A stretch of 32,242 nucleotides of DNA, taken from a virus (taxonomy: Duplodnaviria > Caudoviricetes). The notes beneath the pieces are model-generated. The model was given only the letters and a program-made list of their open reading frames with translations. It had not been told where the DNA came from and did no database searches. Position 1 is the first letter of the stretch, and every line of letters starts with the position of its first letter. Below are positions 5,896-30,282 of this stretch, piece by piece. Position numbers and translations under genes: made by a program. The stretch lies in IMG/VR virus record IMGVR_UViG_3300037598_000406, positions 1 through 32,242 of that record. One strand, written 5' to 3'.

Positions 5896-8187
5896 CTATC
5901 TCTGATTAAAGCGATTATGCCGGTAATAAACCTGCTCGATGGCCTCGGCTATCACCCTGGCGCAATCCTCCCAGTTGAAATCTTCGGCCCTCTTGAGGCT
6001 GGCCTCGCTCATCTTAGCCAGTATATCACCCTTTTCCCTTAAGCGCAAGAGGAGCTGCGCCAGGTCGGTATAGCTTATCTGAGCCAGCCTCACCCCGGTA
6101 TGCCAGTGGGTGATGGCCGAAGGCTTGAGCAGGACGCCCACATCCGGGGTGACGATTTCATTGCGCACCCCATCGTAGGTAGCCACGATGGGGAGGCCGC
6201 AGGCCATCGCCTCCACCAGCGGCAGGCCGAAGCCCTCGACGCTCTCCGGCGCCACATAGAGGTCGGCGCAGTTATACCTCTCCACCAGGCCATAGCCAGC
6301 CATCGGATGGATGGCCCCCTCTATCACGCCGGCCTCCTTGACGCCATACTCTTGGGCGAAGAGCACTGGCGGAAATCTCACCATCCCCCGCAGGTTGTAG
6401 GACTCGGCCAGGTGGAGCAGGGGTATCGGCTGATAGCCGCTCTTCTCGATGGGATTGGTGTGGATGTAGAAGAGGAAATCGGTATGCCCTCGCGAGGCCA
6501 GCCAGCGGGCCGCCTCTATCAGGATGCCCTGGTTGGAGGTGCGCTTGTTACGCTTGACATTCATCACCACGAAGAACTTATCCAGCCCAGCCTGCTCCCG
6601 AAGCCTGCGGCGCTCCTCCTCCGGAAGCCTCCTGAAGACCTCCCTGTCCACGCCATGCCATGCCCACCGAAGGCGGATGGCCCCAAGGCCGAGGGCCTTC
6701 CCGGCCATCTCAAACATCTCCACGCCCCACTGCGTGTAGGTGATACACTCTCCTCCCCGCGCCTTGATGCTGCTCGCCATCTCCAGGAAGATACGAGGAA
6801 TCGGAATGCCCTCGATTGGAAAATAAACCACCACCGGCCACTCGCTGATTCGCTGCCATATCTTCTGAACGGTGCCTGGGTCATAGTTGATATAGATTAC
6901 ATCTGGTTTGTAAAAGTCCAAGAATTGCTCCAGCATGTAGAGGCCGCTGGGGTCGTACTCGCATGGGCGCCAGACCGGGAAGGGGTCTTCCATCGGGCGC
7001 GGACATGTATCCAGCATCCCGATGGCCGCCAGCTCGAAGCCCCACTCCTGCCAGTACCGGGAGACGTTCTTCGTCACCACCCCGAAGCCCGTGGTGAGCG
7101 TGGGGGAATCGGACAGGATGGCGACCTTTATCCTCTTCGGCTTGACGGCGGGCCAGATTTTCGCCCTGTCGCCTCCGATAATCACACGAGGCTCCTCCAA
7201 AACCTCGACGAGCTGGCGGCCAATCACCTTCAGGTCATACTCCTTGGCTTTCTGCCGGAGGGCGGCGGCATATTCCACCCTAAACGCATCATCGGTGCAT
7301 AGCCTCCTTAGCCTCACTAACGCCTCCTCTTTTGTTCCCCAAGTCAAAGCGCCGCCCTCCGGCATCCCACCCGAATCGTGCACCAACGCGGCCACTCCAG
7401 CGGCCATCGCCTCCTCGACGATGATGCCCCTGTGCTCGGCCATGCTTATATCCTGGGCCTCGAAACCAGTGGCCGAGAAGAGGATGGAGGCCCTCTTCAT
7501 GAGATTGATATAATCCTGGCGGCTCAAGTCGTGGTGGAAGTAGATGGGCTTCCTGATGGCCTCTGCCTGGCGCTTGATGCGCTTGAAATAGTCCTCATGC
7601 TGCACGCTGCCCACCAGGTGAAGCTCCCAGCCGGGGACATCTAGCTTCTCGAACAACTCCAAGGCCACATCGTGGCGCTTGTTGTTGCCGGATGGCACCT
7701 CGAAGAACCTCCCCACGACCAGGATGATTTTCTCTTTCTCGCCTGGAGGCTGAAATTCCCCCCAGTTGATGGGCGGATAGATTACGATGGCGTCATCTCT
7801 ATTCCACCTCTTCGAGACCGCCCAGGCGCAGAACTTGCTGTTAGCGATGATGACCTGATAATCGCTCACATCCCAGCGATATTGCGGGAAGAAAGTGACC
7901 AGGACGTTCAGCCTGGCTAATCCCCCATACTTGATAAAATGGGAGATATTGATAAAGACATCGAACTCCCTGGGGTCGTAGACGCCTGAATAGACCCAGC
8001 GGGTGTTGCTCAAGTCCAGGCCATAGTCCTCCCTGGCTTTGTCGAACATGGGCAGGACGCCACGCTCGACGACGGCCAGGACTTCGTAGTGCTCGTCAAG
8101 GGCCTTCAGGAAGGAGAAGGTGTGATATTCGCCTCCGCCATATCCTCCCTGAGCGCCTACATGCCCGCAATAGACCATCAGTTTCAT
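5896..8187 (-). CDS. Tandem two-domain GT4 (GT-B) glycosyltransferase
   Basis: Two GT4 signatures: EHRGIIVEEAMAAG and EGFGLPLVEAMACGLP; N-terminal GGGE loop, second domain begins with SDSPTLTTGFG. Confidence 0.9.
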   Translation of the reverse strand: MKLMVYCGHVGAQGGYGGGEYHTFSFLKALDEHYEVLAVVERGVLPMFDKAREDYGLDLSNTRWVYSGVYDPREFDVFINISHFIKYGGLARLNVLVTFFPQYRWDVSDYQVIIANSKFCAWAVSKRWNRDDAIVIYPPINWGEFQPPGEKEKIILVVGRFFEVPSGNNKRHDVALELFEKLDVPGWELHLVGSVQHEDYFKRIKRQAEAIRKPIYFHHDLSRQDYINLMKRASILFSATGFEAQDISMAEHRGIIVEEAMAAGVAALVHDSGGMPEGGALTWGTKEEALVRLRRLCTDDAFRVEYAAALRQKAKEYDLKVIGRQLVEVLEEPRVIIGGDRAKIWPAVKPKRIKVAILSDSPTLTTGFGVVTKNVSRYWQEWGFELAAIGMLDTCPRPMEDPFPVWRPCEYDPSGLYMLEQFLDFYKPDVIYINYDPGTVQKIWQRISEWPVVVYFPIEGIPIPRIFLEMASSIKARGGECITYTQWGVEMFEMAGKALGLGAIRLRWAWHGVDREVFRRLPEEERRRLREQAGLDKFFVVMNVKRNKRTSNQGILIEAARWLASRGHTDFLFYIHTNPIEKSGYQPIPLLHLAESYNLRGMVRFPPVLFAQEYGVKEAGVIEGAIHPMAGYGLVERYNCADLYVAPESVEGFGLPLVEAMACGLPIVATYDGVRNEIVTPDVGVLLKPSAITHWHTGVRLAQISYTDLAQLLLRLREKGDILAKMSEASLKRAEDFNWEDCARVIAEAIEQVYYRHNRFNQR

Positions 8188-8405
8188 GTTACTGTCTCCG
8201 GCTTGTATGGAGAGTAGGAGGCCCGCACGTGCACCTTCAGGGGCTCACGGGCCATCACCTCCAGTAGAGGCATCCGCCGCCCCTCCTTATCATAGATAAC
8301 GATGCTGAACAGCTCCTCGGTATCCAGGGGCGTGAGGTCAACGTGATACTCCCACTCGCCGTGGGCCTGGTCGTATGAGTGCCACTCTCCGAGTTTTACT
8401 GCCAT
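8184..8405 (-). CDS. Small hypothetical protein
   Basis: Likely start MAVKLGEW at 8405 after GAGGA; fills the gap with overlaps to both neighbours. Confidence 0.6.
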   Translation of the reverse strand: MAVKLGEWHSYDQAHGEWEYHVDLTPLDTEELFSIVIYDKEGRRMPLLEVMAREPLKVHVRASYSPYKPETVT

Positions 8406-9106
8406 AACAATTCCTCTTCGACATAACATGATGGAAGCCTGCGGACGGCATACTTCCGTCCGGTCAGGTCGCCCGGCTTCTCGAAGCCGGAGCCATACAT
8501 GGATAGATATTGCGATTCCTTCTCGGCCAGCCGCTTCTCATCGAGCCAGCCGAGATGGAGGATTCCCACATTGAAATCGGCGATTTCATCGTCGAGAAAC
8601 TCGATTAGCTGCCCGCCGGATAGCTTCATCACGTGCTCGTGCACCTGTCCCACCCATCGCAGCCTCTCATCAGCCCTCCACACCCTCGGCCAGGTCTCCC
8701 ATCCCCCGTGAGAGGCGGCGTAGTGAGACTTGTCGCTGACAATATTGTATTGCTTGACCCTCACCGCCACAATCTCAGGCGGGAGATTTCGCAAAGCCTG
8801 CCTGAACCACGATTTGTACCGTGCGGGAAAAATCTCGTCGCTGTCAATCCTCATCCACCACCACTCCTCGCCACGCGGGGCGTGGTCAAATGAAACCTGT
8901 CTTTGCAACGCAAAGTGGCCTGGCCACTTGTGCTCAACGAGTTTGATGTTTAGGATGCCCTTTTGCCTATGGATGATATTCAGCGTCTCGTCCTGAGAAC
9001 CGCCGTCCACAATGGTCACGTGATTTGCCAGGCCATGAAGCGACTTCAGACACGCCAGCAGGGTATCTTCGTTGTTCAGGACTATCATCGTGACAGCTAA
9101 TTTCAT
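8396..9106 (-). CDS. GT2 glycosyltransferase (WaaE/KdtX-like)
   Basis: MIVLNNE...IVDGGSQDET...RIDSDE (DxD)...GQVHE...ILHLG. Confidence 0.9.
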   Translation of the reverse strand: MKLAVTMIVLNNEDTLLACLKSLHGLANHVTIVDGGSQDETLNIIHRQKGILNIKLVEHKWPGHFALQRQVSFDHAPRGEEWWWMRIDSDEIFPARYKSWFRQALRNLPPEIVAVRVKQYNIVSDKSHYAASHGGWETWPRVWRADERLRWVGQVHEHVMKLSGGQLIEFLDDEIADFNVGILHLGWLDEKRLAEKESQYLSMYGSGFEKPGDLTGRKYAVRRLPSCYVEEELLWQ

Positions 9107-9855
9107 TTGGCTAACTCCGGGTACTTCTTGATGAGCTTAAGCCAGTTGGGATGGGTCTGGCCCGGATGCTCCCTATCGAACCGCCTGAGCACCCTATCAC
9201 GCCAGGAGCCCTGGCTCTCGCTATCGTCCACCATCATCGGGATGCCGTTCGCCAGAACGACCTCCCCTCCTGCCTCGACAAGGCGGATGCCGAAATCCCT
9301 GTCGGCGAAGCCCATGCTTAAATCAAACTCCTCGTCAAAGCCGCCCACCTTCTCCACAAGCGAGCGAGGACACGACATCCCGGCGCTTGTGACCCAGGAG
9401 GCCGGCCCCTCCCGACGAATCTCAAACGGGATGAGGTAGTAATGCTTGGCGACCCTATTGGCGAGATGAGGAACCAATACACAATTCGGAATAAAGGCAT
9501 GGTATAGCTGAATAAGGAAGAGCGCGTGGGGGTGGAATATCAAATCATCGTCGAGGAAGAGGATAACGTCGTTATGGGTATGGCGGATGGCTATATTGCG
9601 GGAGCTATAGACCCTGGGAAGGTCATCGGGGTGACGCTCGCGATAGATGTACTCGGCCTTGAAGGGGAGGGAGCCCCAGTCTATGGAGAAACCCACCTGG
9701 GGCTGCGAGCCATCGTCCACCACGCAGCAGTCCAAATGCTCGAATCTAAAGAAGAGCTGCTCCGAGAGCTGGCGGACGACCCTGGCGAGGGATTGAGGGC
9801 GATTATAGGTGGCTATCACGACGCTAATGCTCGGAAGCTCTAACGTATACGGCAT
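9103..9855 (-). CDS. GT2 glycosyltransferase
   Basis: True start MPYTLELPSISVVIATYNR at 9855 (GGAGGAG RBS); VVDDGS, RNIAI, LFLDDD, VGGFDEEF, DRDFGIR. Confidence 0.9.
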   Translation of the reverse strand: MPYTLELPSISVVIATYNRPQSLARVVRQLSEQLFFRFEHLDCCVVDDGSQPQVGFSIDWGSLPFKAEYIYRERHPDDLPRVYSSRNIAIRHTHNDVILFLDDDLIFHPHALFLIQLYHAFIPNCVLVPHLANRVAKHYYLIPFEIRREGPASWVTSAGMSCPRSLVEKVGGFDEEFDLSMGFADRDFGIRLVEAGGEVVLANGIPMMVDDSESQGSWRDRVLRRFDREHPGQTHPNWLKLIKKYPELAK

Positions 9856-10889
9856 CACTTCTCCTCCAGTAACGCTAAATACTGACTGGCTAATCGCCTC
9901 CCGGCCATCTCCGAGGACAGAAGATTTACGGCCCGATGTCTGTTGAACACCCCCATCCTCTGCTGAAGGACGGGGTCTGAGAGGATGAGCTGGAGGCGCT
10001 CGTGTAGAATATCCCACCGCCTGCATGGGATGATGAAGCCCCCCTCCGGCCTCACTATCTCGTGGAAGGCGCCGACGCCGGTGGTGATGACCGGCAGTCC
10101 CGAAGCCATAGCCTCGGTCACTGCCACCCCCCACTGCTCGACCCAGGCCCTCAGAGGGTCGTGGGAGAGGAGCGGGAGGCTCACCAGCACGAATACAGTG
10201 GCCTCCTGATAGATGCCCGGCAAATCCTCGTGGGGCACAGCCCCCAGGAAGCGGGCGCTCACCTCGTATTCCTCGGCCATCTGAGCGAAGACATCTATCC
10301 GCCCATCGCCGACGACCCAAAGCTCGGCATCCAGCCCGGCCATCGCCCAAATCAGGTCTTGGATGCCCTTCTCCAGGGTCACGCGGGCCACGGTGAGCAC
10401 TACCCTGGTATCGGGCACAAAGGGCAGTGGCGCAAACATGTCGGTATCCACCCCTGGGGAGATGACCCGGATTTTATCCTTCGGCACGCCCTCCAGCAGG
10501 AGGACGTTGGCGGCCATGCTGCTGCGGGCGATATAGAGGTCGAAGGCGCCCTGCCAGGCCAGCCCTCCCGTCTGCCTGTTCTTTCCGGGGAGGTTATCGA
10601 AGCAGGAGCACACCAGGCGCGTCCCCGGCTCGGCCCTGGACGCGCAGTACCGCGTCAGGGCATAGTGGAGGTCGGGCAGGTCTAGGATGGTCGGCTCAAG
10701 GGATAAGACCTCATCCGGGTGCTTCCAATAGACCATCTCGGCACCCTCCATCCTCTCGCCGCCCCTCAGCTCCACGGCGATGATGACCTCGGCCTCGACG
10801 CCCTCCCGCTCCAAGGCGTCGGGTAGCGATTGATAAGTCATAAGGTCATGCGGGCTAAACTTGTCAGGGCGAGCGATTACGATACGCAT
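9855..10889 (-). CDS. GT4 glycosyltransferase
   Basis: PGVDT, VARVTLEKG, EQWGVAVTEAMASGLPVI. Confidence 0.9.
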   Translation of the reverse strand: MRIVIARPDKFSPHDLMTYQSLPDALEREGVEAEVIIAVELRGGERMEGAEMVYWKHPDEVLSLEPTILDLPDLHYALTRYCASRAEPGTRLVCSCFDNLPGKNRQTGGLAWQGAFDLYIARSSMAANVLLLEGVPKDKIRVISPGVDTDMFAPLPFVPDTRVVLTVARVTLEKGIQDLIWAMAGLDAELWVVGDGRIDVFAQMAEEYEVSARFLGAVPHEDLPGIYQEATVFVLVSLPLLSHDPLRAWVEQWGVAVTEAMASGLPVITTGVGAFHEIVRPEGGFIIPCRRWDILHERLQLILSDPVLQQRMGVFNRHRAVNLLSSEMAGRRLASQYLALLEEK

Positions 10890-11590
10890 CAGGCTCCTTT
10901 CGTCCCGTTATGGCCCTCTTTGTCGGGCCGTAAGGTGAAATGATAGACGACGGCGGTGGAGTATCCCACCTTGAAGCCGGCCCGCTGGGCAGCTCGGCAA
11001 TACTCACGGTCGCTGCCGATATGGGGATAATTCTCCTCGTCCAGAAGGCCCACCTTCTCTAGCACGTCCTTGTGTATCCCCATCACGGCCCCGGTGACCC
11101 ACTCATACCAGTTACGGCAGCGCCTCGGCTCGAAGTAGCTGATATTGGGCTGCCTCATCCCGTAGTGGAAGCCCTCCCCATAAGCTCCGGCGTGGTCAAT
11201 CCTCCCATCGGCGGTGAGGGTCTTGCAGCCGACGATTCCCCACCTCAAGACCTCGGCCTGCCCCACCATAATCTCGGCCCATCCAGGCGTGACCTCGGTA
11301 TCGGAATTGAGGAGGATAAACCAATCATATCCCCCATCCTGCCGGGCCAATCTCAGGCCCTCGTTGCACGCCTGGGTGAACCAGAGACGCCTCTCCACGA
11401 GCCTTCCGGTGAGGCGATTGAAATTATCCCCTAACCAGCGGATGAGGCCCTCGGTCTCTGTATCCGTCTCCCCTGAGACGATGTAGGCGTGCCAGGGGAG
11501 ACAGGTGTGGAGATAGAGGGATTCCACACAGGCGGCCAGGTGCATGGCATCCTTATAACTGGGAATGATGATAGCGACATTTCTCACCAT
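10889..11590 (-). CDS. GT2 glycosyltransferase (rhamnosyl/GalNAc transferase-like)
   Basis: Start MVRNVAIIIPSY at 11590; ACNEG, LLNSDT, WVTGAVM, VGLLDE, SDREYCR. Confidence 0.88.
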   Translation of the reverse strand: MVRNVAIIIPSYKDAMHLAACVESLYLHTCLPWHAYIVSGETDTETEGLIRWLGDNFNRLTGRLVERRLWFTQACNEGLRLARQDGGYDWFILLNSDTEVTPGWAEIMVGQAEVLRWGIVGCKTLTADGRIDHAGAYGEGFHYGMRQPNISYFEPRRCRNWYEWVTGAVMGIHKDVLEKVGLLDEENYPHIGSDREYCRAAQRAGFKVGYSTAVVYHFTLRPDKEGHNGTKGA

Positions 11591-12555
11591 ACGAGACCCG
11601 CCTTCACCTTCTCGGCCAGCTTGATGTACTCCCCCGCCATGCGCCAGTGATTGAACCACGAGACGGAGCGGCGACACTCATAGGGATTTATCTCGTCAAT
11701 GTGGCTCAGCGCATAGGCATAATCATCGAGGCTATAGCAGATGTAGCCATTGCGCCCGCTCTGGATGTACTCCGGGAGGCACCCATTATCGCTCGCGAGC
11801 ACCGGCGTCCCGCAATGGAGTGCCTCCAGGACGATTATGGCCCCCGCCTCGACCCATCCGGTACCGCCCACCGGGTGGATTAAAGCCTTCGCCCTCATGA
11901 TAAGCTCCAGCTTCTGCTGGCCGCCCACATCCCCCATGTAGATTATCTTGTCGCTGTCGAGATGGGGCTTGATGGCGTTTCTGAAATACTCCGGCACCCA
12001 GGCAGGCCCGCAGATGATGAGCTTATGCCTGCACCTCTTCGCCACATCAATGGCGATATGGGCCTGCTTCTCCGGGATGACGCTCCCCATGTAGAGGAGA
12101 TAGTCCTCCCTCTCGCCGAGGTAGAGAGGATACTCCCCGGCGCGGATGCCATAGTAAATCACCTTCGCCTCCTCCATCTTGAGGTGGCGGCGCTGAGCAT
12201 AGGAGATGCAGACGACGTTATGGGGCCAGGAGAGGCTCATGACCTGATAGACGTTTATCGAGGGGAAGTTGGGCCAGAGCCTCGGAATCACCTTGTCGTG
12301 GCTCATGTCAATCAGGGCATCGAGCCTCTTGTGCCACTCGCCCGCCGCAAAAGCGTGGGCGAACTGACGCTCCGATAGCGTGACGGCCTCCAGCTTCCCG
12401 CCAGGCGGGGCCTTGGAGCCCTCCTTGGCGAAGAGTGTAACATTATGTTGCATTTGGGAGAGGGCGCAGCAAAGCCACCAGGCTATCCGCTCAATCCCCC
12501 CATAACGCTCAGGCGGCGTGGGTATCGCCGCCGTGGAAATCACTCCTATTTTCAT
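11584..12555 (-). CDS. GT4 glycosyltransferase
   Basis: Start MKIGVIST at 12555; PPERYGGIER, PEKQAH, EAGAIIVLEALHCGTPVL. Confidence 0.9.
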   Translation of the reverse strand: MKIGVISTAAIPTPPERYGGIERIAWWLCCALSQMQHNVTLFAKEGSKAPPGGKLEAVTLSERQFAHAFAAGEWHKRLDALIDMSHDKVIPRLWPNFPSINVYQVMSLSWPHNVVCISYAQRRHLKMEEAKVIYYGIRAGEYPLYLGEREDYLLYMGSVIPEKQAHIAIDVAKRCRHKLIICGPAWVPEYFRNAIKPHLDSDKIIYMGDVGGQQKLELIMRAKALIHPVGGTGWVEAGAIIVLEALHCGTPVLASDNGCLPEYIQSGRNGYICYSLDDYAYALSHIDEINPYECRRSVSWFNHWRMAGEYIKLAEKVKAGLVW

Positions 12556-12803
12556 CCTCCGCCCTCCCCTTTCGAGAAGGGCAGCAGTTGGTCTGCCCCC
12601 TCGTCCTCCTCGATGGCCTCGTCGCAATGGCCGGGGTCAATCAAGTCCAGCAGCCAGCAGAGCCACTGGTAAGGTGGAACTTTGTCCCTGAACTTCCCCA
12701 GCCGGGAGGAAATCGTCTCATCAGGGTCGCCGAGGAGGATTGCATTGAGAAGCTGGTCGAAAGCTGTGCATACATTTATGATATACTTCTTTATCTTACT
12801 CAT
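12552..12803 (-). CDS. Conserved small phage protein (DQxxN...DETISSRxG...C..LD..DPGHC type)
   Basis: Motif recalled from phage hypothetical proteins; GAGGTGA RBS. Confidence 0.7.
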   Translation of the reverse strand: MSKIKKYIINVCTAFDQLLNAILLGDPDETISSRLGKFRDKVPPYQWLCWLLDLIDPGHCDEAIEEDEGADQLLPFSKGEGGG

Positions 12804-12804
12804 C

Positions 12805-13107
12805 TCACCTCAGTATCTTTATACACCCTAAGAACTCTGTGCGGAAACCGAATTGACACACCAAATCTATCCTCCTGTGCCTGGTGAAGGTAATCAAAGG
12901 GCCGCGATGCCTGCCCACCACGAAGGTGAAAAACCAGGCATCGCATGGCACGTTCGGCCTATCCAGCTCTATCCGCAGCCAATACTCGCCGCTTCCCCGA
13001 TAGACCCTCTCGGATAGCTTCCAGTAAAACCTATACGTCGAGAGGAGCTTGCAGCCAGAGGCCACAAGCAGGGAAGCGATGAGCGCAATTAAGATTAGCC
13101 TTCTCAC
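12805..13107 (-). CDS. Putative lipoprotein
   Basis: GTG start at 13107 gives MRRLILIALIASLLVASG-C, a basic N-region, h-region and lipobox; coupled (GTGA) to the upstream micro-ORF. Confidence 0.6.
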   Translation of the reverse strand: MRRLILIALIASLLVASGCKLLSTYRFYWKLSERVYRGSGEYWLRIELDRPNVPCDAWFFTFVVGRHRGPLITFTRHRRIDLVCQFGFRTEFLGCIKILR

Positions 13108-13217
13108 GGCGATTTGAGGCTCAAAAACAGGAGCACTATAAAGACTGCGAGCGAGCCTAAGCCCACTCCCAAGCCGAACGCCCCGATGACCACAAACCAA
13201 CACGGAGCACCAAGCAT
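13104..13217 (-). CDS. 37-aa single-TM microprotein (not in the ORF track)
   Basis: GGAGGTGA-gat-ATG; MLGAPCWFVVIGAFGLGVGLGSLAVFIVLLFLSLKSP*; stop overlaps the lipoprotein GTG. Confidence 0.6.
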   Translation of the reverse strand: MLGAPCWFVVIGAFGLGVGLGSLAVFIVLLFLSLKSP

Positions 13218-13220
13218 ATC

Positions 13221-14003
13221 TCACCTCCCGTATTTTACTACTGGGTTGACCCAGCCCTCGTTGGGATTCTTTCCCACAATCTCGGCCAGCTCCATGTTCA
13301 CCGAGGAGGTGAATCTCTTTAGCTCCTCGGTGGTCATGGCCGCAAGCTCGTAGACGGTGGGTATCCTCCTCTCCGGGGGAGCTTTCTTATTGTAAATCCC
13401 CAGGCCATACCACTTCTTCCGCCCGATTTCATGCCATTTCATATCTAAAAGGAGCTTATTTCGGGCGGAGTAGGCATGGTAAAAAGGAGGCTTCTTGCTG
13501 TAATCCCTCGGAGGATGGAATACGCTGACACGCGGGTCAACCAACACCCGATAACCACGCCACTCTATCTCATATCCCAAGTCCAAGTCAAACCACTGCG
13601 TAAAGATAAAATCCTCATCGCACAGCACCTCTGTCTCCAGGCGGATGACGCCGGCGATGCCATCAAACCACTTCGGAAAGGGGGAGGCCAACGGCTTCCG
13701 AGGCTCTCCCTCCCTGTTCGGCCTGATGAGGCCGACCTCCGGATGGCGGGAGATGTAGTTTAACATCGTCTCAAGATACTCCTGATGAACTATCTCCACA
13801 TCGCAGTGGAGAAAGTGGACGAATGTGGCCTTCGTCATCTTGAGGACGGTGTTCCACACCCTCGGCTCGTGGTTCAGCTCCGGCCACCAATAAACCGGGA
13901 AGCCGGGGTAGAGAGACCGCAGGCGGTTCTCCAATCTCTGGGCCCTCTTCTTGTCCCATCCTAAGATGCATATAGAGCACAAAGGGCTAGGTCTCTCCGC
14001 CAT
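13221..14003 (-). CDS. GT2-like glycosyltransferase
   Basis: CSICIL N-terminal strand, HFLHCDV (xDx), DEDF...FDLDLG...GYRVLVDPRVSVFH. Confidence 0.8.
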   Translation of the reverse strand: MAERPSPLCSICILGWDKKRAQRLENRLRSLYPGFPVYWWPELNHEPRVWNTVLKMTKATFVHFLHCDVEIVHQEYLETMLNYISRHPEVGLIRPNREGEPRKPLASPFPKWFDGIAGVIRLETEVLCDEDFIFTQWFDLDLGYEIEWRGYRVLVDPRVSVFHPPRDYSKKPPFYHAYSARNKLLLDMKWHEIGRKKWYGLGIYNKKAPPERRIPTVYELAAMTTEELKRFTSSVNMELAEIVGKNPNEGWVNPVVKYGR

Positions 14004-19460: not shown

Positions 19461-20072
19461 TTAGAAAGGTATATACAGCTCCCATTCTCTACCTCCTTCT
19501 TTTTGTAATATTCCAAAGCCATAGGCCCAGGGAATCTCCAGCGACATGGAGACATCCTTCCGCGTCCTCCACTGCTCGAAGACCTCCCTGGGGCCGCCCG
19601 GCCCTGGTAGATAGACTATATCGTGAAGCACGGCCCAGCCTCCATCCGAGAGCAAGTCCCAGGCCATAGTGAGTTCGAGCCTGACCCTATCGGCGTGATG
19701 GTCTCCGTCAATGTAGATGAGGTCAGCCCCGCCCTCCATGCAGGCCAGGAACTCCAGGCTATCCATGTGAAAAAACTTCCACCTGCTCTTCCAATTGAGC
19801 CGTAAAGAAGAAACGGCCTCGCTACAGTCCTCGATGTCGCAACTGTAGAGAAGGCCGTTTGTAGTCCGCAGTGCGGTCAAAAACATCAGTGTCGAGATAC
19901 CTTCCCCGACACCAATCTCATAAACAACTTTAGGGCGACAGGCCAGACAGAGTAGATAAATCGTCAGCGCATAGTCCAAGCCAGCGCCCCTTGCAACCAC
20001 CTCGCTCAGCGAGCGAGCAAGAGGATATATTTGTCTTTGGCGCTCTTGTAGCTCAGTTAAGTCTACTACCAT
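19461..20072 (-). CDS. Class I SAM-dependent methyltransferase (Methyltransf_24-like)
   Basis: Start MVVDLTEL at 20072 (GGGAG); YEIGVGEGIST, YSCDI, DLIYIDGDH, GGWAVLHD. Confidence 0.88.
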   Translation of the reverse strand: MVVDLTELQERQRQIYPLARSLSEVVARGAGLDYALTIYLLCLACRPKVVYEIGVGEGISTLMFLTALRTTNGLLYSCDIEDCSEAVSSLRLNWKSRWKFFHMDSLEFLACMEGGADLIYIDGDHHADRVRLELTMAWDLLSDGGWAVLHDIVYLPGPGGPREVFEQWRTRKDVSMSLEIPWAYGFGILQKEGGREWELYIPF

Positions 20073-20096
20073 AGGCGCTCCCAAGATGATATTCCA

Positions 20097-20241
20097 AGTG
20101 GGGCGGCGCCCGGCTCGCCGCCCCACTACCAGAAAGGAGGAGAAAGATGAACGGCGCGGCCCCCTGGAGGCTGCTCGCAACCTGCCTGCAACCAATATCC
20201 CTATCGCAAGGTGAAAATCGCAGCCCCTCCCTGGCGGCTGC
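20097..20241 (-). ncRNA. Putative structured sRNA or 5' leader with an anti-Shine-Dalgarno segment
   Basis: Directly downstream of a consensus promoter; three small hairpins, a pyrimidine tract UUCAUCUUUCUCCUCCUUUCU (20151-20131), then a perfect 12-bp GC hairpin (20097-20108/20116-20127). Confidence 0.55.
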
Positions 20242-20245
20242 TGTT

Positions 20246-20274
20246 ATTATATCACAAATCAGTAAAATTGTCAA
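20246..20274 (-). promoter_or_regulatory. Consensus sigma70/sigmaA promoter
   Basis: TTGACA (20274-20269), 17-bp spacer, TATAAT (20251-20246), in an AT-rich intergenic gap. Confidence 0.9.
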
Positions 20275-20314
20275 ATCGGGCTTTTGAGGGCGTTTGACTT
20301 ATAAATCATTTAAC

Positions 20315-20348
20315 TTAAAAGCAGGGGGTTGACCTGCGCAACCCCCTG
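20315..20348 (-). terminator. Intrinsic terminator ending the packaging operon
   Basis: 10-bp stem CAGGGGGTTG/CAACCCCCTG (20322-20331/20339-20348) followed on the - strand by CTTTTAAGTT. Confidence 0.7.
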
Positions 20349-24953: not shown

Positions 24954-24982
24954 TTGACAAATTTAGCAAAATATAGTATAAT
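24954..24982 (+). promoter_or_regulatory. Consensus sigma70 promoter for the rightward arm
   Basis: TTGACA (24954-24959), 17 bp, TATAAT (24977-24982). Confidence 0.9.
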
Positions 24983-25001
24983 AGAGGCAGGTGGTAATCT
25001 A

Positions 25002-25030
25002 ATTATACCTCAAAAGGGAGGTTTGGGCAA
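25002..25030 (-). promoter_or_regulatory. Putative sigma70 promoter for the terminase operon
   Basis: TTGCCC (25030-25025), 17 bp, TATAAT (25007-25002) on the - strand. Confidence 0.65.
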
Positions 25031-25822: not shown

Positions 25823-26131
25823 ATGGCTTGGGTATCGAAGAGTTTTTCTCTCAATCTGGAGAGGGATAAAGATGTCTTGGATTTTCTGGCGTCTCAGCGC
25901 AATCAGAGTTTAGTGATTCGGGACGCCCTCCGCCTCATGGCGGCGAAGAACCCTCCCGATAGGAAGGATGAGGTCTTGGAGACCCTCAAGAGGATTGAGA
26001 AGCTGCTCATCCAACAGAGCGAGCTTCTCAAGAAGGCAGCCTTTGCCGTCGAGGAGGGCGAGGAGCTGATTGAACTCGCCGAGGTGGGAGGCAAGTTTGA
26101 GATTGAGCCAGAGGAGTTCTACTTTGAATAA
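25823..26131 (+). CDS. Ribbon-helix-helix-like DNA-binding protein
   Basis: GAAAGGAG RBS; SKSFSL strand, DKDVLDFL helix, NQSLVIRDALR helix, coiled coil, acidic tail. Confidence 0.65.
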   Translation: MAWVSKSFSLNLERDKDVLDFLASQRNQSLVIRDALRLMAAKNPPDRKDEVLETLKRIEKLLIQQSELLKKAAFAVEEGEELIELAEVGGKFEIEPEEFYFE

Positions 26132-26151
26132 ATAGAGAAAGGAGGGGAAAG

Positions 26152-26931
26152 ATGAAAAGAGACTATCTATCGAAGAGGTTTTCCATCCCGCTGTGGGCGC
26201 TCCTTGCGATTCTTGCCGTCTGCATCGTCACCCTGACGATACCGGATGAGGGGTCGTATTACCACAAGCGGGAGCTGGAGGAGGCCACTCCTCCCCCGGC
26301 TTTCCTGGAAGTCGAGGCCCCTGGGGAGGTAGAGTCTCGCCTGATTGGTATTGACGTGAGCCAGTATCAGGGCGAGATAGATTGGGAGAAGGTGGCGGCC
26401 AGCGGAGTGCGCTTCGTCATCATCAGGGCCACGATGGGGCTGGGCGGCACCGACCCCAACTTCATCTCAAACTGGGAGGGGGCTAAGAAGGCGGGTCTCC
26501 TGGTGAGCGCTTATCACATTTTTTTCCATGATGAATCGCCCGTAAAGCAGGCACTCGCCTTCGTCCAGGCCCTCGATGGGAGGGAGCCGGATTTCCCCCT
26601 GGCGCTGGATGTGGAGATTCCGGCGCGGGGGAACTACGGCGCCCAGCTAGAGGATATGTGCCTTACAATGGAGATACTCACGGGCCAGAGACCCATGATA
26701 TACACCGCCCAGTATATTTGGAACACTAACGTGGGCTGGGGCCCGAAGTGGCATCTCTACCCGCTATGGGTGGCGGACTACGATGCCGCCGCTCCCGCCA
26801 TGCCCGATGGCTGGGAGAGGTGGAGCATCTGGCAATACTCCAATAAGGGCCGCATCTCCGGGATAGAGGGCCACGTAGACCTCAACCTCTTCGAGGGAAC
26901 TGAGGAGGAGCTGAAGAGGCTCGGAGAATGA
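26152..26931 (+). CDS. GH25 muramidase (endolysin) with N-terminal TM/signal anchor
   Basis: GIDVSQYQG, IRATMG, AYHIF, ALDVE, LWVADY, WQYS, VDLN; N-terminal LWALLAILAVCIVTLTI. Confidence 0.92.
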   Translation: MKRDYLSKRFSIPLWALLAILAVCIVTLTIPDEGSYYHKRELEEATPPPAFLEVEAPGEVESRLIGIDVSQYQGEIDWEKVAASGVRFVIIRATMGLGGTDPNFISNWEGAKKAGLLVSAYHIFFHDESPVKQALAFVQALDGREPDFPLALDVEIPARGNYGAQLEDMCLTMEILTGQRPMIYTAQYIWNTNVGWGPKWHLYPLWVADYDAAAPAMPDGWERWSIWQYSNKGRISGIEGHVDLNLFEGTEEELKRLGE

Positions 26932-27467: not shown

Positions 27468-27493
27468 TTATCAATAGAAAGGAGGAGAGAACT

Positions 27494-27826
27494 ATGCAGA
27501 CTTTGGAGAGAATCACCGATAGTTGGCAGGCAACTCGTCAATCCCCCGTCGTCGAGGTGGAGGTACACCTCAAGGACGATGAGGTGTTCGCCGTCTTTAT
27601 TGATGGCGAGCCGATGGTGCTGAGGGAGGCTGGCTTCGCCACCGTCGGCCTCATCGCCGGCACCGAGGTGGCGCTAAAGGCGAGGGGGTGGCCGGACTGG
27701 GCTATCTCCCAGGTGAGGCGGCTCCACCTGAAGGGAGTCTTGCCCTCGCTGAAGGGCAAGCTCCCGAAGTGGGAGGAGGCCCGTGAGGAGTGGGAAAGGG
27801 CATTTGAATACCTATCTCAGGAGTAG
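27494..27826 (+). CDS. Hypothetical protein
   Basis: AGAAAGGAGG RBS; 110 aa. Confidence 0.75.
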   Translation: MQTLERITDSWQATRQSPVVEVEVHLKDDEVFAVFIDGEPMVLREAGFATVGLIAGTEVALKARGWPDWAISQVRRLHLKGVLPSLKGKLPKWEEAREEWERAFEYLSQE

Positions 27827-28618: not shown

Positions 28619-29926
28619 ATGAGAGCAAAAGTTAACATCATAATCGGAGATTGCCGGCAGGTGCTCAGGAGTTTCCCCGATGGGTACTTCCACTGCTGTG
28701 TGACCTCCCCTCCCTACTGGGGGCTGAGACATTATAGGCTCCCCCCGCTGATTTGGGGCGGGGAGGGGGATTGCGAGCATGAGTGGGGAGACACCCTTAA
28801 ACGCCGGCAGGTAGGAGGTCAGCTCAAGGGCTATTCCTCTCAATGGCAGCTCCCCAGCAGGGAAGCCCATCATGGCGGTACCGCCGGCCAGTTCTGCCAG
28901 AAGTGCGGGGCCTGGCGGGGGCAGCTTGGCCTGGAGCCCTCCCCGGAGCTGTATGTGGAGCACCTCGTGGAGGTCTTCCGGGAGGTACACCGAGTGCTCC
29001 ATCCGTCAGGCACCCTCTGGCTGAACCTCGGCCATACCTACATGGGTTCCGGCCAGGGGTGGCAGAAGGAGGACTCGTCGAGCTGGAGGAGGCAGTGGCT
29101 CGATGAGTTCGAGGAGGCCAGGAGGCAGGCCCCTACCCTTATACGCCACAGCCACTTCAAGCCGAAAGACCTGGTGCCCATCCCCTGGATGGTGGGGATG
29201 GCGCTTCAGAGGGAGGGGTGGTGGCTGCGGAGCGACATCATCTGGTTAAAGATTAACGCCTTACCAGAGAGCGTCAAAGACCGCCCGACGCTGGCTCACG
29301 AGTATTTGCTCCTCCTCTCGAAGAGCCGAAGGTATTACTATGATAGCGTAGCCATCCGTGAGCCGGCGAAGGAGGTCAGCATCGAGCGCTTGAAGCGAGG
29401 GGTGGGGGTGCACAAGTACACCGAGGGCGCCCCCGGCCAGAAGCCTCACACGATACACAGGCCGAGGAAGAAAAATCCAGCCAGGCTCGTGCCCACCATG
29501 CGCAACAAGCGCACCGTCTGGTCGCTGGCCGTGCAACCTTTCAAGGGGGCCCACTTCGCAGTATTCCCAGCGTCGCTCGTCCGCCCTCCCATCCTGGCCG
29601 GCACCAGCGAGAGGGGTTGCTGCCCGAAGTGCGGCTCCCCCTGGGAGCGTCTCGTGCGCAAGGCTTATAGCCAATACGAGGAGACCGTCACCATCGGCTG
29701 GAGTCCCACCTGCGATTGCGGGGAAGAGCCCGTGCCCTGTCGCGTCCTCGACCCCTTCGCCGGCACGGGCACGACCGGCCTGGTGGCCGCCAAGCTCTTT
29801 CGGGATAGCGTCCTGATTGAGCTGAGCCCCGAATATGGGCGCATGGCGGAGGAGAGGCTCCGCCGGGAACTCGGCGGCCTCTTCACGGAAATCGAGATAA
29901 AAACTTTTAGAAAGGAGGAGATATGA
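28619..29926 (+). CDS. Orphan N4/N6 DNA methyltransferase (beta class) with Cys-rich inserts
   Basis: IIGDC, VTSPPYW, GTLWLNLG, DIIWLK, HEYL, HFAVFP, VLDPFAGTGTT, IELSPEY; inserts CQKC, CPKC, CDC. Confidence 0.93.
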   Translation: MRAKVNIIIGDCRQVLRSFPDGYFHCCVTSPPYWGLRHYRLPPLIWGGEGDCEHEWGDTLKRRQVGGQLKGYSSQWQLPSREAHHGGTAGQFCQKCGAWRGQLGLEPSPELYVEHLVEVFREVHRVLHPSGTLWLNLGHTYMGSGQGWQKEDSSSWRRQWLDEFEEARRQAPTLIRHSHFKPKDLVPIPWMVGMALQREGWWLRSDIIWLKINALPESVKDRPTLAHEYLLLLSKSRRYYYDSVAIREPAKEVSIERLKRGVGVHKYTEGAPGQKPHTIHRPRKKNPARLVPTMRNKRTVWSLAVQPFKGAHFAVFPASLVRPPILAGTSERGCCPKCGSPWERLVRKAYSQYEETVTIGWSPTCDCGEEPVPCRVLDPFAGTGTTGLVAAKLFRDSVLIELSPEYGRMAEERLRRELGGLFTEIEIKTFRKEEI

Positions 29927-30282
29927 AAGATAGCAGCGAGTTAATCTACATCACAATCCTACTCCTGGTCTTCGTCATCATAGTGATAATCGTGGTAGGG
30001 CCGGCATCCTCGCCCGCGCCCGATACAAGTTCCCTCATCGAGTGTCTCCAGAGCGTGGGCCTCGACATGCGCGGCTCAGGGCGCCGTGAACTCCCCTCCG
30101 GGTGGGAGTGCAACGTCATCCTCGACCGTTACCAGGTCACGCGGGATGAGGCCCTCCAAATGGCGAGGATGGCGAAGCTCTGCGAACCCCGATGCCGTTA
30201 TATCATCGTTGAATCGTACTGGTATACGAATGTTCGTTTTACCTTCGATGCGGAGGACGATTTCAAAGAAATAACGAAATAA
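29923..30282 (+). CDS. Membrane-anchored protein with Cys-containing extracellular domain
   Basis: AGAAAGGAGG RBS; strong N-terminal TM. Confidence 0.75.
   Translation: MKDSSELIYITILLLVFVIIVIIVVGPASSPAPDTSSLIECLQSVGLDMRGSGRRELPSGWECNVILDRYQVTRDEALQMARMAKLCEPRCRYIIVESYWYTNVRFTFDAEDDFKEITK

Follow-up and report, generated by a model that had tools for sequence, protein, structure and literature searches.

The window analysed here, the whole stretch of 32,242 nucleotides, is a marine tailed-phage fragment carrying genes for terminase, portal, RuvC and a GH25 lysin together with a glycosyltransferase block. One further record (G001) is identical to the window across the 9 kb compared and extends 7.6 kb further right. 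Another (G007) overlaps the window's last 127 bases at 100% identity and G001 at 99.95%, and via this overlap the phage reaches ~75.7 kb in two records. G007 contributes a divergent promoter pair, a run of small plus-strand genes and a replication initiator, as well as capsid, prohead protease and tape measure genes on the minus strand. Gene starts were assigned by a simple in-house script, and the labels 'early' and 'late' are inferences from what the genes encode and how they are arranged. The ORF scan, which covered a subset of all ORFs, turned up no integrase. Because the best lysin relatives in GTDB come from Anaerolineae and other Chloroflexota (43-48%), the host is probably a member of the Chloroflexota.

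The lysin gene (26152-26931, plus strand; Pfam PF01183, PHROGs endolysin) encodes an N-terminal hydrophobic segment (residues 12-30, hydropathy 2.6), and its product may act independently of a holin. Its operon is headed by promoter B, a perfect consensus match at 24954-24982 (plus strand), and no plus-strand terminator is listed between this promoter and the lysin. Promoter B stands face to face with the packaging promoter at 25030-25002 (minus strand); a face-to-face consensus promoter pair also precedes the small terminase gene in a relative (L013 4574-4665; portal identity 55%). The window's pair (24954-25030) is a candidate switch that would choose between packaging genes and lysin operon. 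Promoters at 25030-25002 and 15438-15410 in the window and at L130 1770-1798 form a second class, possibly a later one, in which a perfect -10 is combined with TTGCCC or TTGCCA at -35. The gene directly before the lysin (25823-26131) matches nothing in Pfam or PHROGs, and by inspection its N-terminus resembles a ribbon-helix-helix DNA-binding domain.

The feature under study lies 6 kb from the lysin, between the packaging genes and the glycosyltransferase block. Promoter A (20246-20274, minus strand) is a perfect sigma-70 consensus, TTGACA-17-TATAAT (12/12), with an extended -10. It would read into a methyltransferase gene (19461-20082, minus strand; start 20072, SD GGGAG at 20082-20078; Pfam Methyltransf_24), the first gene of the minus-strand glycan and virion block. 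Since G007 carries the capsid, prohead protease and tape measure genes on its minus strand, the minus-strand genes left of promoter A probably run on into these head and tail genes. The first-pass annotation had described a perfect leftward promoter firing into ~170 non-coding nucleotides and insulated from the packaging operon by a terminator, and each of these points was borne out in the sequence: the leader measures 167-169 nt up to the methyltransferase start, and an intrinsic U-tailed terminator at 20322-20348 (minus strand) closes the packaging genes upstream of promoter A. Among the eight consensus-type promoters of the phage, only promoter A has a long leader, its first SD-led start lying at +174, compared with +29 to +57 in six of the others and no such start in one. 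An anti-SD tract is likewise present behind promoter A only, and is absent behind 14 consensus promoters in five related records. Promoter A itself resembles promoters of the related record G005, which stand 20-30 nt ahead of a gene.

At least seven glycosyltransferase genes occupy window positions 5896-14003, and G007 holds a 1363-aa LamG protein and a further GT4 (L129 14447-15523). Glycosyltransferases likewise lie beside the packaging genes at the related loci L011, L013 and L014, which suggests that the virion is glycosylated.

The candidate antisense RNA (20097-20241, minus strand) is at the same time the methyltransferase 5' leader. Both of its ends are predicted; from the promoter it would start at 20241 or 20239. 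Within it, a pyrimidine tract at 20128-20152 (minus strand) is complementary to the whole stretch from SD to start codon, spacer included, at the lysin and at early genes. A hairpin with a perfect 12-bp GC-rich stem and a 7-nt loop (20097-20127) follows 3' of the tract on the minus strand. This hairpin has no U tail on either strand, so the 3' end of a 145-nt RNA is an assumption. No Rfam family reached its gathering score in either the window or G007:2000-10000, and the three matches up to E 10 between 19900 and 20500 were to families other than the phage c4 RNA, with CcsR1 at E 9.8 (11 bits against a gathering score of 65). As a whole, the RNA folds no better than shuffled sequences (z -1.0 to -1.4), and predicted folds place the tract in a linker and closing helix, outside any hairpin loop. 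The earlier picture of a tract lying free between hairpins did not hold: in the predicted fold, the SD-side half of the tract is paired to the 5' end of the same RNA. Within the 143-145 nt RNA, opening this half costs 5.1 kcal/mol, compared with 1.2 kcal/mol for the AUG-side half. Binding through a toehold would be possible with such a partly open tract, but RNAs of this kind typically present an exposed loop instead.

These folds bear on an explanation in cis, in which the tract pairs with the 5' end of the RNA or, across the hairpin, with the methyltransferase SD, and thereby determines how well the methyltransferase, which opens the glycan block, is translated; early mRNAs could flip this structure by binding to it. 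The absence of a U-tailed terminator between leader and methyltransferase gene fits such a role. So does the long transcript starting at 20241, in which GGGAG pairs with the tract at a probability of ~0.5. If the transcript starts at 20239, that value falls to ~0.15 and the 5' end takes the tract instead (~0.7), so the balance hinges on a 2-nt shift of a predicted start. Moreover, five SD pairs leave both the complementarity to spacer and AUG and the homology to gene-start cassettes described below unexplained, and we regard a cis-acting leader as improbable.

The central claim of the first-pass annotation was a match of 20 of 21 positions between the reverse complement of 20151-20131 and the lysin ribosome site and start (26136-26156, plus strand). 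We reproduced it; the match extends on neither side, and its lone difference becomes a U-G pair, so that the tract can form 21 contiguous pairs with the lysin start, one of them G-U. The next best site for the 21-mer in the window reaches 15/21. The target itself is predicted to be open, with an opening cost of 1.2 kcal/mol. Also correct was the identification of CCUCCUUUCU with the 16S rRNA 3' tail, which is equal in all six copies found, from three of the five Chloroflexota genomes searched.

The complementarity is not confined to the lysin. Contiguous helices of the tract measure 21 bp at the lysin, 19 bp at the start of G007:3474, 16 bp at window position 27494 and 15 bp at 29923. The latter two mark secondary predicted targets at 27476-27498 (plus strand, rank 10 of 63) and 29909-29927 (plus strand, rank 7 of 63). 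When the reverse complements of the 63 real starts of the phage were treated in the same way, the best partner gave no more than 18 and the second-best no more than 16, and none was better in mean energy over eight partners; in related phages, helices of at least 21 bp arose from 3 of 160 real starts. A whole-phage search for the best antisense site of each start gave the lysin the longest among the 63. Two other starts reach 20, and one phage start has a G-U-rich 20-bp site that is apparently due to chance; G007:3474 is paired by the same tract as the lysin. G007:3474 (L129 3474-3602) is the first gene after the early promoter and encodes a 42-aa arginine-rich peptide. The peptide has no family or Atlas match, and we take it to be reminiscent of lambda N-type RNA-binding antiterminators.

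How specific the pairing would be depends on the level at which it is scored. By tract-level net energy, computed for the 45 best hybrids, the lysin comes first of 297 candidate starts at -32.3 kcal/mol, against -25.6 kcal/mol for the next. With the whole folded RNA against the 63 starts, G007:3474 ranks first in all six settings, and the lysin second in five and fourth in one. Net binding lies near -30, and ranks 3 to 9 fall within 5 kcal/mol of the lysin. The expectation that the lysin would head the ranking was thus upheld for the isolated tract and not for the full RNA. A timer acting on the lysin alone, its other pairings being incidental to the shared SD, would explain both the longest helix and the first place at the tract level, but leaves the 19 contiguous pairs of G007:3474, its precedence in every whole-RNA setting and the closely following ranks unaccounted for; we give this reading little credence.

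The predicted targets are biased instead by gene class. None of the 11 top-ranked targets of the whole RNA falls among the 23 starts of the virion and glycan block, the medians of non-virion and block starts are -16.5 and -10.4 kcal/mol (Mann-Whitney p 4e-5), and major capsid and portal rank 48 and 50 of 63. This bias fits a function and a mere origin alike, because a relic early start would also resemble early rather than late sites. At the other extreme from a single target stands a general SD decoy, an RNA that mimics the 16S tail and broadly dampens host translation. The last 10 nt of the tract do equal the Chloroflexota 16S 3' end. Nevertheless, none of 167 SD-led Chloroflexota starts (30 loci, not from the actual host) gave a helix of at least 15 bp, the best being 14 bp, as opposed to 4 of 63 starts in the phage, and we consider a decoy very improbable.

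The origin of the element is clearer. In front of five genes of the early region stand a GC-rich hairpin, ACTAGA and a strong SD, followed by the start codon, and four of these five cassettes add a long upstream hairpin and an operator-like palindrome. We built a covariance model (R1) from four G007 cassettes with the window site left out, the training copies having been picked after the likeness was noticed. It scored the fifth cassette at 44.7 bits and window 20097-20153 (plus strand; hairpin, ribosome site and ATG) at 31.7 bits (E ~1.6e-6, a rough value). The next non-cassette site reached 18.5 bits, the lysin site alone 13.9, and the window site on the minus strand 9.4. The GC hairpin, ACTA, AAAGGAGG and the start codon are all present; neither the long upstream hairpin nor an operator-like site was found before 20097. 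By this score, the window site is a sixth copy of the early gene-start cassette, lying backwards in the predicted promoter A transcript. In its hairpin, two pairs are swapped and one is missing relative to the closest cassette hairpin (G007:7771-7802), and the pairing is preserved. The hairpin alone is equalled by 384 of 50,000 random hairpins of the same make-up, and pair counts in the four-cassette alignment show no covariation.

Among the alternatives offered in the first-pass annotation, a relic plus-strand ribosome site therefore proved right as to origin. Taken further, an early cassette, perhaps from a related phage, would have landed here by recombination as a relic or cryptic gene start, its lysin match being chance or copying among similar ribosome sites and its leader having no trans role. 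The much higher plus-strand score and the fivefold repetition of the cassette in the early region speak for this. So does the commonness of the signal: 20 phage genes share the AAAGGAGG site, and therefore ten of the tract's 21 letters are generic. Partners at 20/21 exist for 6 of the 159 starts of three related phages, so copying does yield such pairs, and the exact 21-mer is an ordinary gene start in five of six IMG/VR matches, in two unrelated gene families. The lack of conservation in relatives, detailed below, points the same way.

Several observations weigh against a mere relic. The hairpin, SD and ATG are undecayed, and no plus-strand promoter was found between 18101 and 20130. The 46-codon ORF behind the cassette (20147-20287, plus strand), which crosses promoter A, is probably not a gene: its codon score is lower than that of 23 of 24 short phage ORFs, nothing similar occurs in the phage or in four related phage records, and it has no Pfam, PHROGs or Atlas match. 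A type I toxin-antitoxin system was considered and rejected, as the product of this ORF has a low hydropathy (1.24) and lacks both promoter and terminator. The spacer fits the lysin and not the sibling cassettes, all five of which carry GGAGGTG, whereas the window copy alone has a lysin-like spacer. A simulated new AAAGGAGG site reached at least 20/21 against any of the 20 such genes in 69 of 20,000 draws (~0.35%), and none of 62 real starts of the phage has a partner above 18/21. The twins in related phages are always nearby gene starts; the lysin does not lie nearby and is not headed by a cassette. Finally, promoter A would transcribe the complement of the cassette whatever its origin, so that origin and function are not mutually exclusive. 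On balance we judge a relic with no trans role rather unlikely.

As far as the relatives examined show, the element is lineage-specific. It is missing from the corresponding place of both L013 (portal 55%) and L014 (32%; complete genome G003), and in L013 a homologue of the 331-aa protein leads straight into the next gene. The lysin starts of G004 and G005, records about half complete, have no antisense site beyond 14-15 bp. The only locus retrieved by single-protein searches with the methyltransferase, the portal and the terminase was the identical copy G001, and a search with the 331-aa protein recovered nothing except itself. A metagenome scan with a portal alignment gave two distant loci, and portal relatives, again distant, occur in 1 of 401 Anaerolineae-class genomes. 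Among the sequencing runs listed as containing this sequence, none was of RNA. No variant letters appeared in DNA contigs of eight runs where the region was covered; two of the eight runs may themselves be the source of this DNA, and in others the element was partly covered. We also scanned IMG/VR for the architecture itself, using a narrow pattern of a consensus promoter followed 80-110 nt on by a reversed start and SD. The ten loci found comprise this phage, five copies of one terminator-like hairpin, and others, and none of the nine other loci has a 19/21 twin start in its flanks. The cassette model scored no higher than 13.1 bits across 374 kb from other phage loci and found nothing in a further 132 kb. 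Scores of ~30 bits in 2 of 151 Anaerolineae-class genomes were set aside after inspection as seemingly unrelated SD-bearing sites. We likewise dropped the idea that the 21-bp repeat marks an excision site around the packaging genes, given that the packaging genes adjoin glycosyltransferase genes at L011, L013 and L014 too.

The explanation that we favour, tentatively and with slightly less than even confidence, is a multi-target trans-acting antisense RNA, made from an inverted gene-start cassette behind a consensus promoter, that turns down translation at the lysin start and at the starts of several genes that are likely early. Established at the level of the sequence are the promoter, the homology to the cassette, the complementarity and the non-virion bias. 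Transcription would begin at 20241 or 20239 from promoter A, and a stable RNA ending at the 12-bp hairpin would arise via weak termination or by trimming of the long transcript. The accessible AUG-side half of the tract would then nucleate pairing and zip into the SD half, and the paired ribosome sites of the lysin and likely early genes would be repressed. Because promoter A stands at the head of the glycan and virion block as well, such an RNA would likely serve to turn down early genes and hold back the membrane-anchored lysin while the virion genes are read. Thus, of the earlier proposal that a trans-acting anti-ribosome-site RNA times lysis, the trans reading remains the best single one and the 21-bp lysin helix the longest, but lysin specificity is lost, as G007:3474 outranks the lysin when the whole RNA is considered.

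In favour of this multi-target RNA, complementarity to translation starts at other loci exceeds background, perfect pairing in the hairpin has survived three pair-level changes, the plus-strand reading lacks a promoter and scores as non-coding, and the lysin ribosome site is strong, open and downstream of a consensus promoter. Against it, no relative has the element, the anti-SD half is predicted to be partly buried and a U-tailed terminator is absent at the leader end; moreover, a U-rich tract may pair loosely with any purine-rich site. A consensus promoter should also fire early. Unless the promoter is under some form of regulation, this is hard to reconcile with a switch that operates late, and the RNA may instead dampen its targets from the outset or work in a carrier state. 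A bolder version, which we hold to be doubtful, is an early-to-late switch made of RNA only. Here the inverted cassette in the virion operon leader, tuned to the lysin start, would silence the early mRNA class and the lysin, docking first by kissing with the cassette hairpins. It would be the RNA equivalent of T4 RegB, observed shortly after it arose. The 7-nt loop of the hairpin can pair fully with the loops of two of the five cassettes, with six G-C pairs; loop-loop kissing is a conjecture. The virion block also encodes a SpoIID-family cell-wall hydrolase and an RRXRR/HNH endonuclease (L130 4331-4954 and 16421-17503), and this hydrolase may share the lysis job with the lysin.

The candidate can be set beside several known regulators. 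The host-encoded Cuckoo/CcsR sRNAs of Alphaproteobacteria carry a C/U-rich anti-SD motif, CCUCCUCCC, repeated in hairpin loops, and have many mRNA partners. The candidate shares the C/U-rich anti-SD character and the many possible partners, but has a single CCUCCUUUCU tract outside a loop, complementarity to spacer and AUG, and no repeated CCUCCUCCC loops. The c4 RNA of phages P1 and P7 pairs in trans around the ribosome-binding site of a phage mRNA, with the antirepressor as target and recognition sequences thought to lie in loops (PMC12197685). Both RNAs are phage-encoded and pair in trans at the ribosome site of a phage mRNA, a pairing that is predicted in the case of the candidate. In contrast to c4, the candidate has no Rfam match, its tract lies outside a hairpin loop and would cover the start regions of many genes from SD through spacer to AUG, and its source is a gene-start cassette. 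No antirepressor family matched among the ORFs scanned, and the target G007:3474 has no known family.

A closer parallel in purpose is PAK_P4as15 of Pseudomonas phage PAK_P4, described as a cis-encoded antisense RNA of ~550 nt that matches the endolysin gene and is proposed to repress endolysin translation and delay lysis (PMC5563952, PMC12197685). Antisense control of lysin translation is thus proposed in both phages; unlike PAK_P4as15, the candidate is encoded 6 kb from the lysin rather than opposite its gene and has several predicted targets. In T4, the RegB endoribonuclease inactivates early mRNAs at GGAG in the SD, easing the early-to-late transition, and a leader structure of gene e blocks premature lysozyme translation from early mRNA (PMC3014915). 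The outcome predicted for the candidate would combine the two effects. However, RegB is a protein nuclease and gene e is controlled in cis, as opposed to one trans-pairing RNA for both.

Phage trans-acting RNAs with known targets are few, and antisense control of lysis has so far only been proposed, in cis, for PAK_P4as15 (PMC5563952, PMC12197685). Within the open-licence literature searched, we found no trans-acting phage RNA covering the ribosome sites of a lysin and early genes. If the proposal is true, it would illustrate a simple origin for a regulator, in which a repeated gene-start signal, inverted behind a promoter, is at once complementary to a whole gene class. Judged from its DNA, the arrangement is real and unusual, and the antisense function is put forward as a proposal. 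The element is amenable to reporter fusions that do not require culturing of the probable Chloroflexota host.

The early region of G007 holds further repeated elements. Its cassettes (L129 4221-4361, 5126-5287, 6261-6430, 7690-7836 and 8868-8990) contain a long interrupted hairpin in four copies, a second hairpin, ACTAGA repeats and a strong SD. The three that were folded are more stable than shuffled sequences (z -3.8 to -5.4). These cassettes have no Rfam match and were found by pattern in this phage only; possible roles are RNase III-type processing or antitermination. The 17-bp operator-like palindrome occurs seven times in the early region (L129 2746, 3058, 4030, 5092, 6243, 7658 and 8544) and once within the glycan block (window 12436). 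A 179-aa gene with a weak helix-turn-helix match lies divergent from the early promoter (L129 2184-2723). Short tandem iteron-like repeats stand between divergent promoters at L108 10350-10800, and three repeats of 17-20 bp lie within the replication initiator gene (L129 11718-11775).
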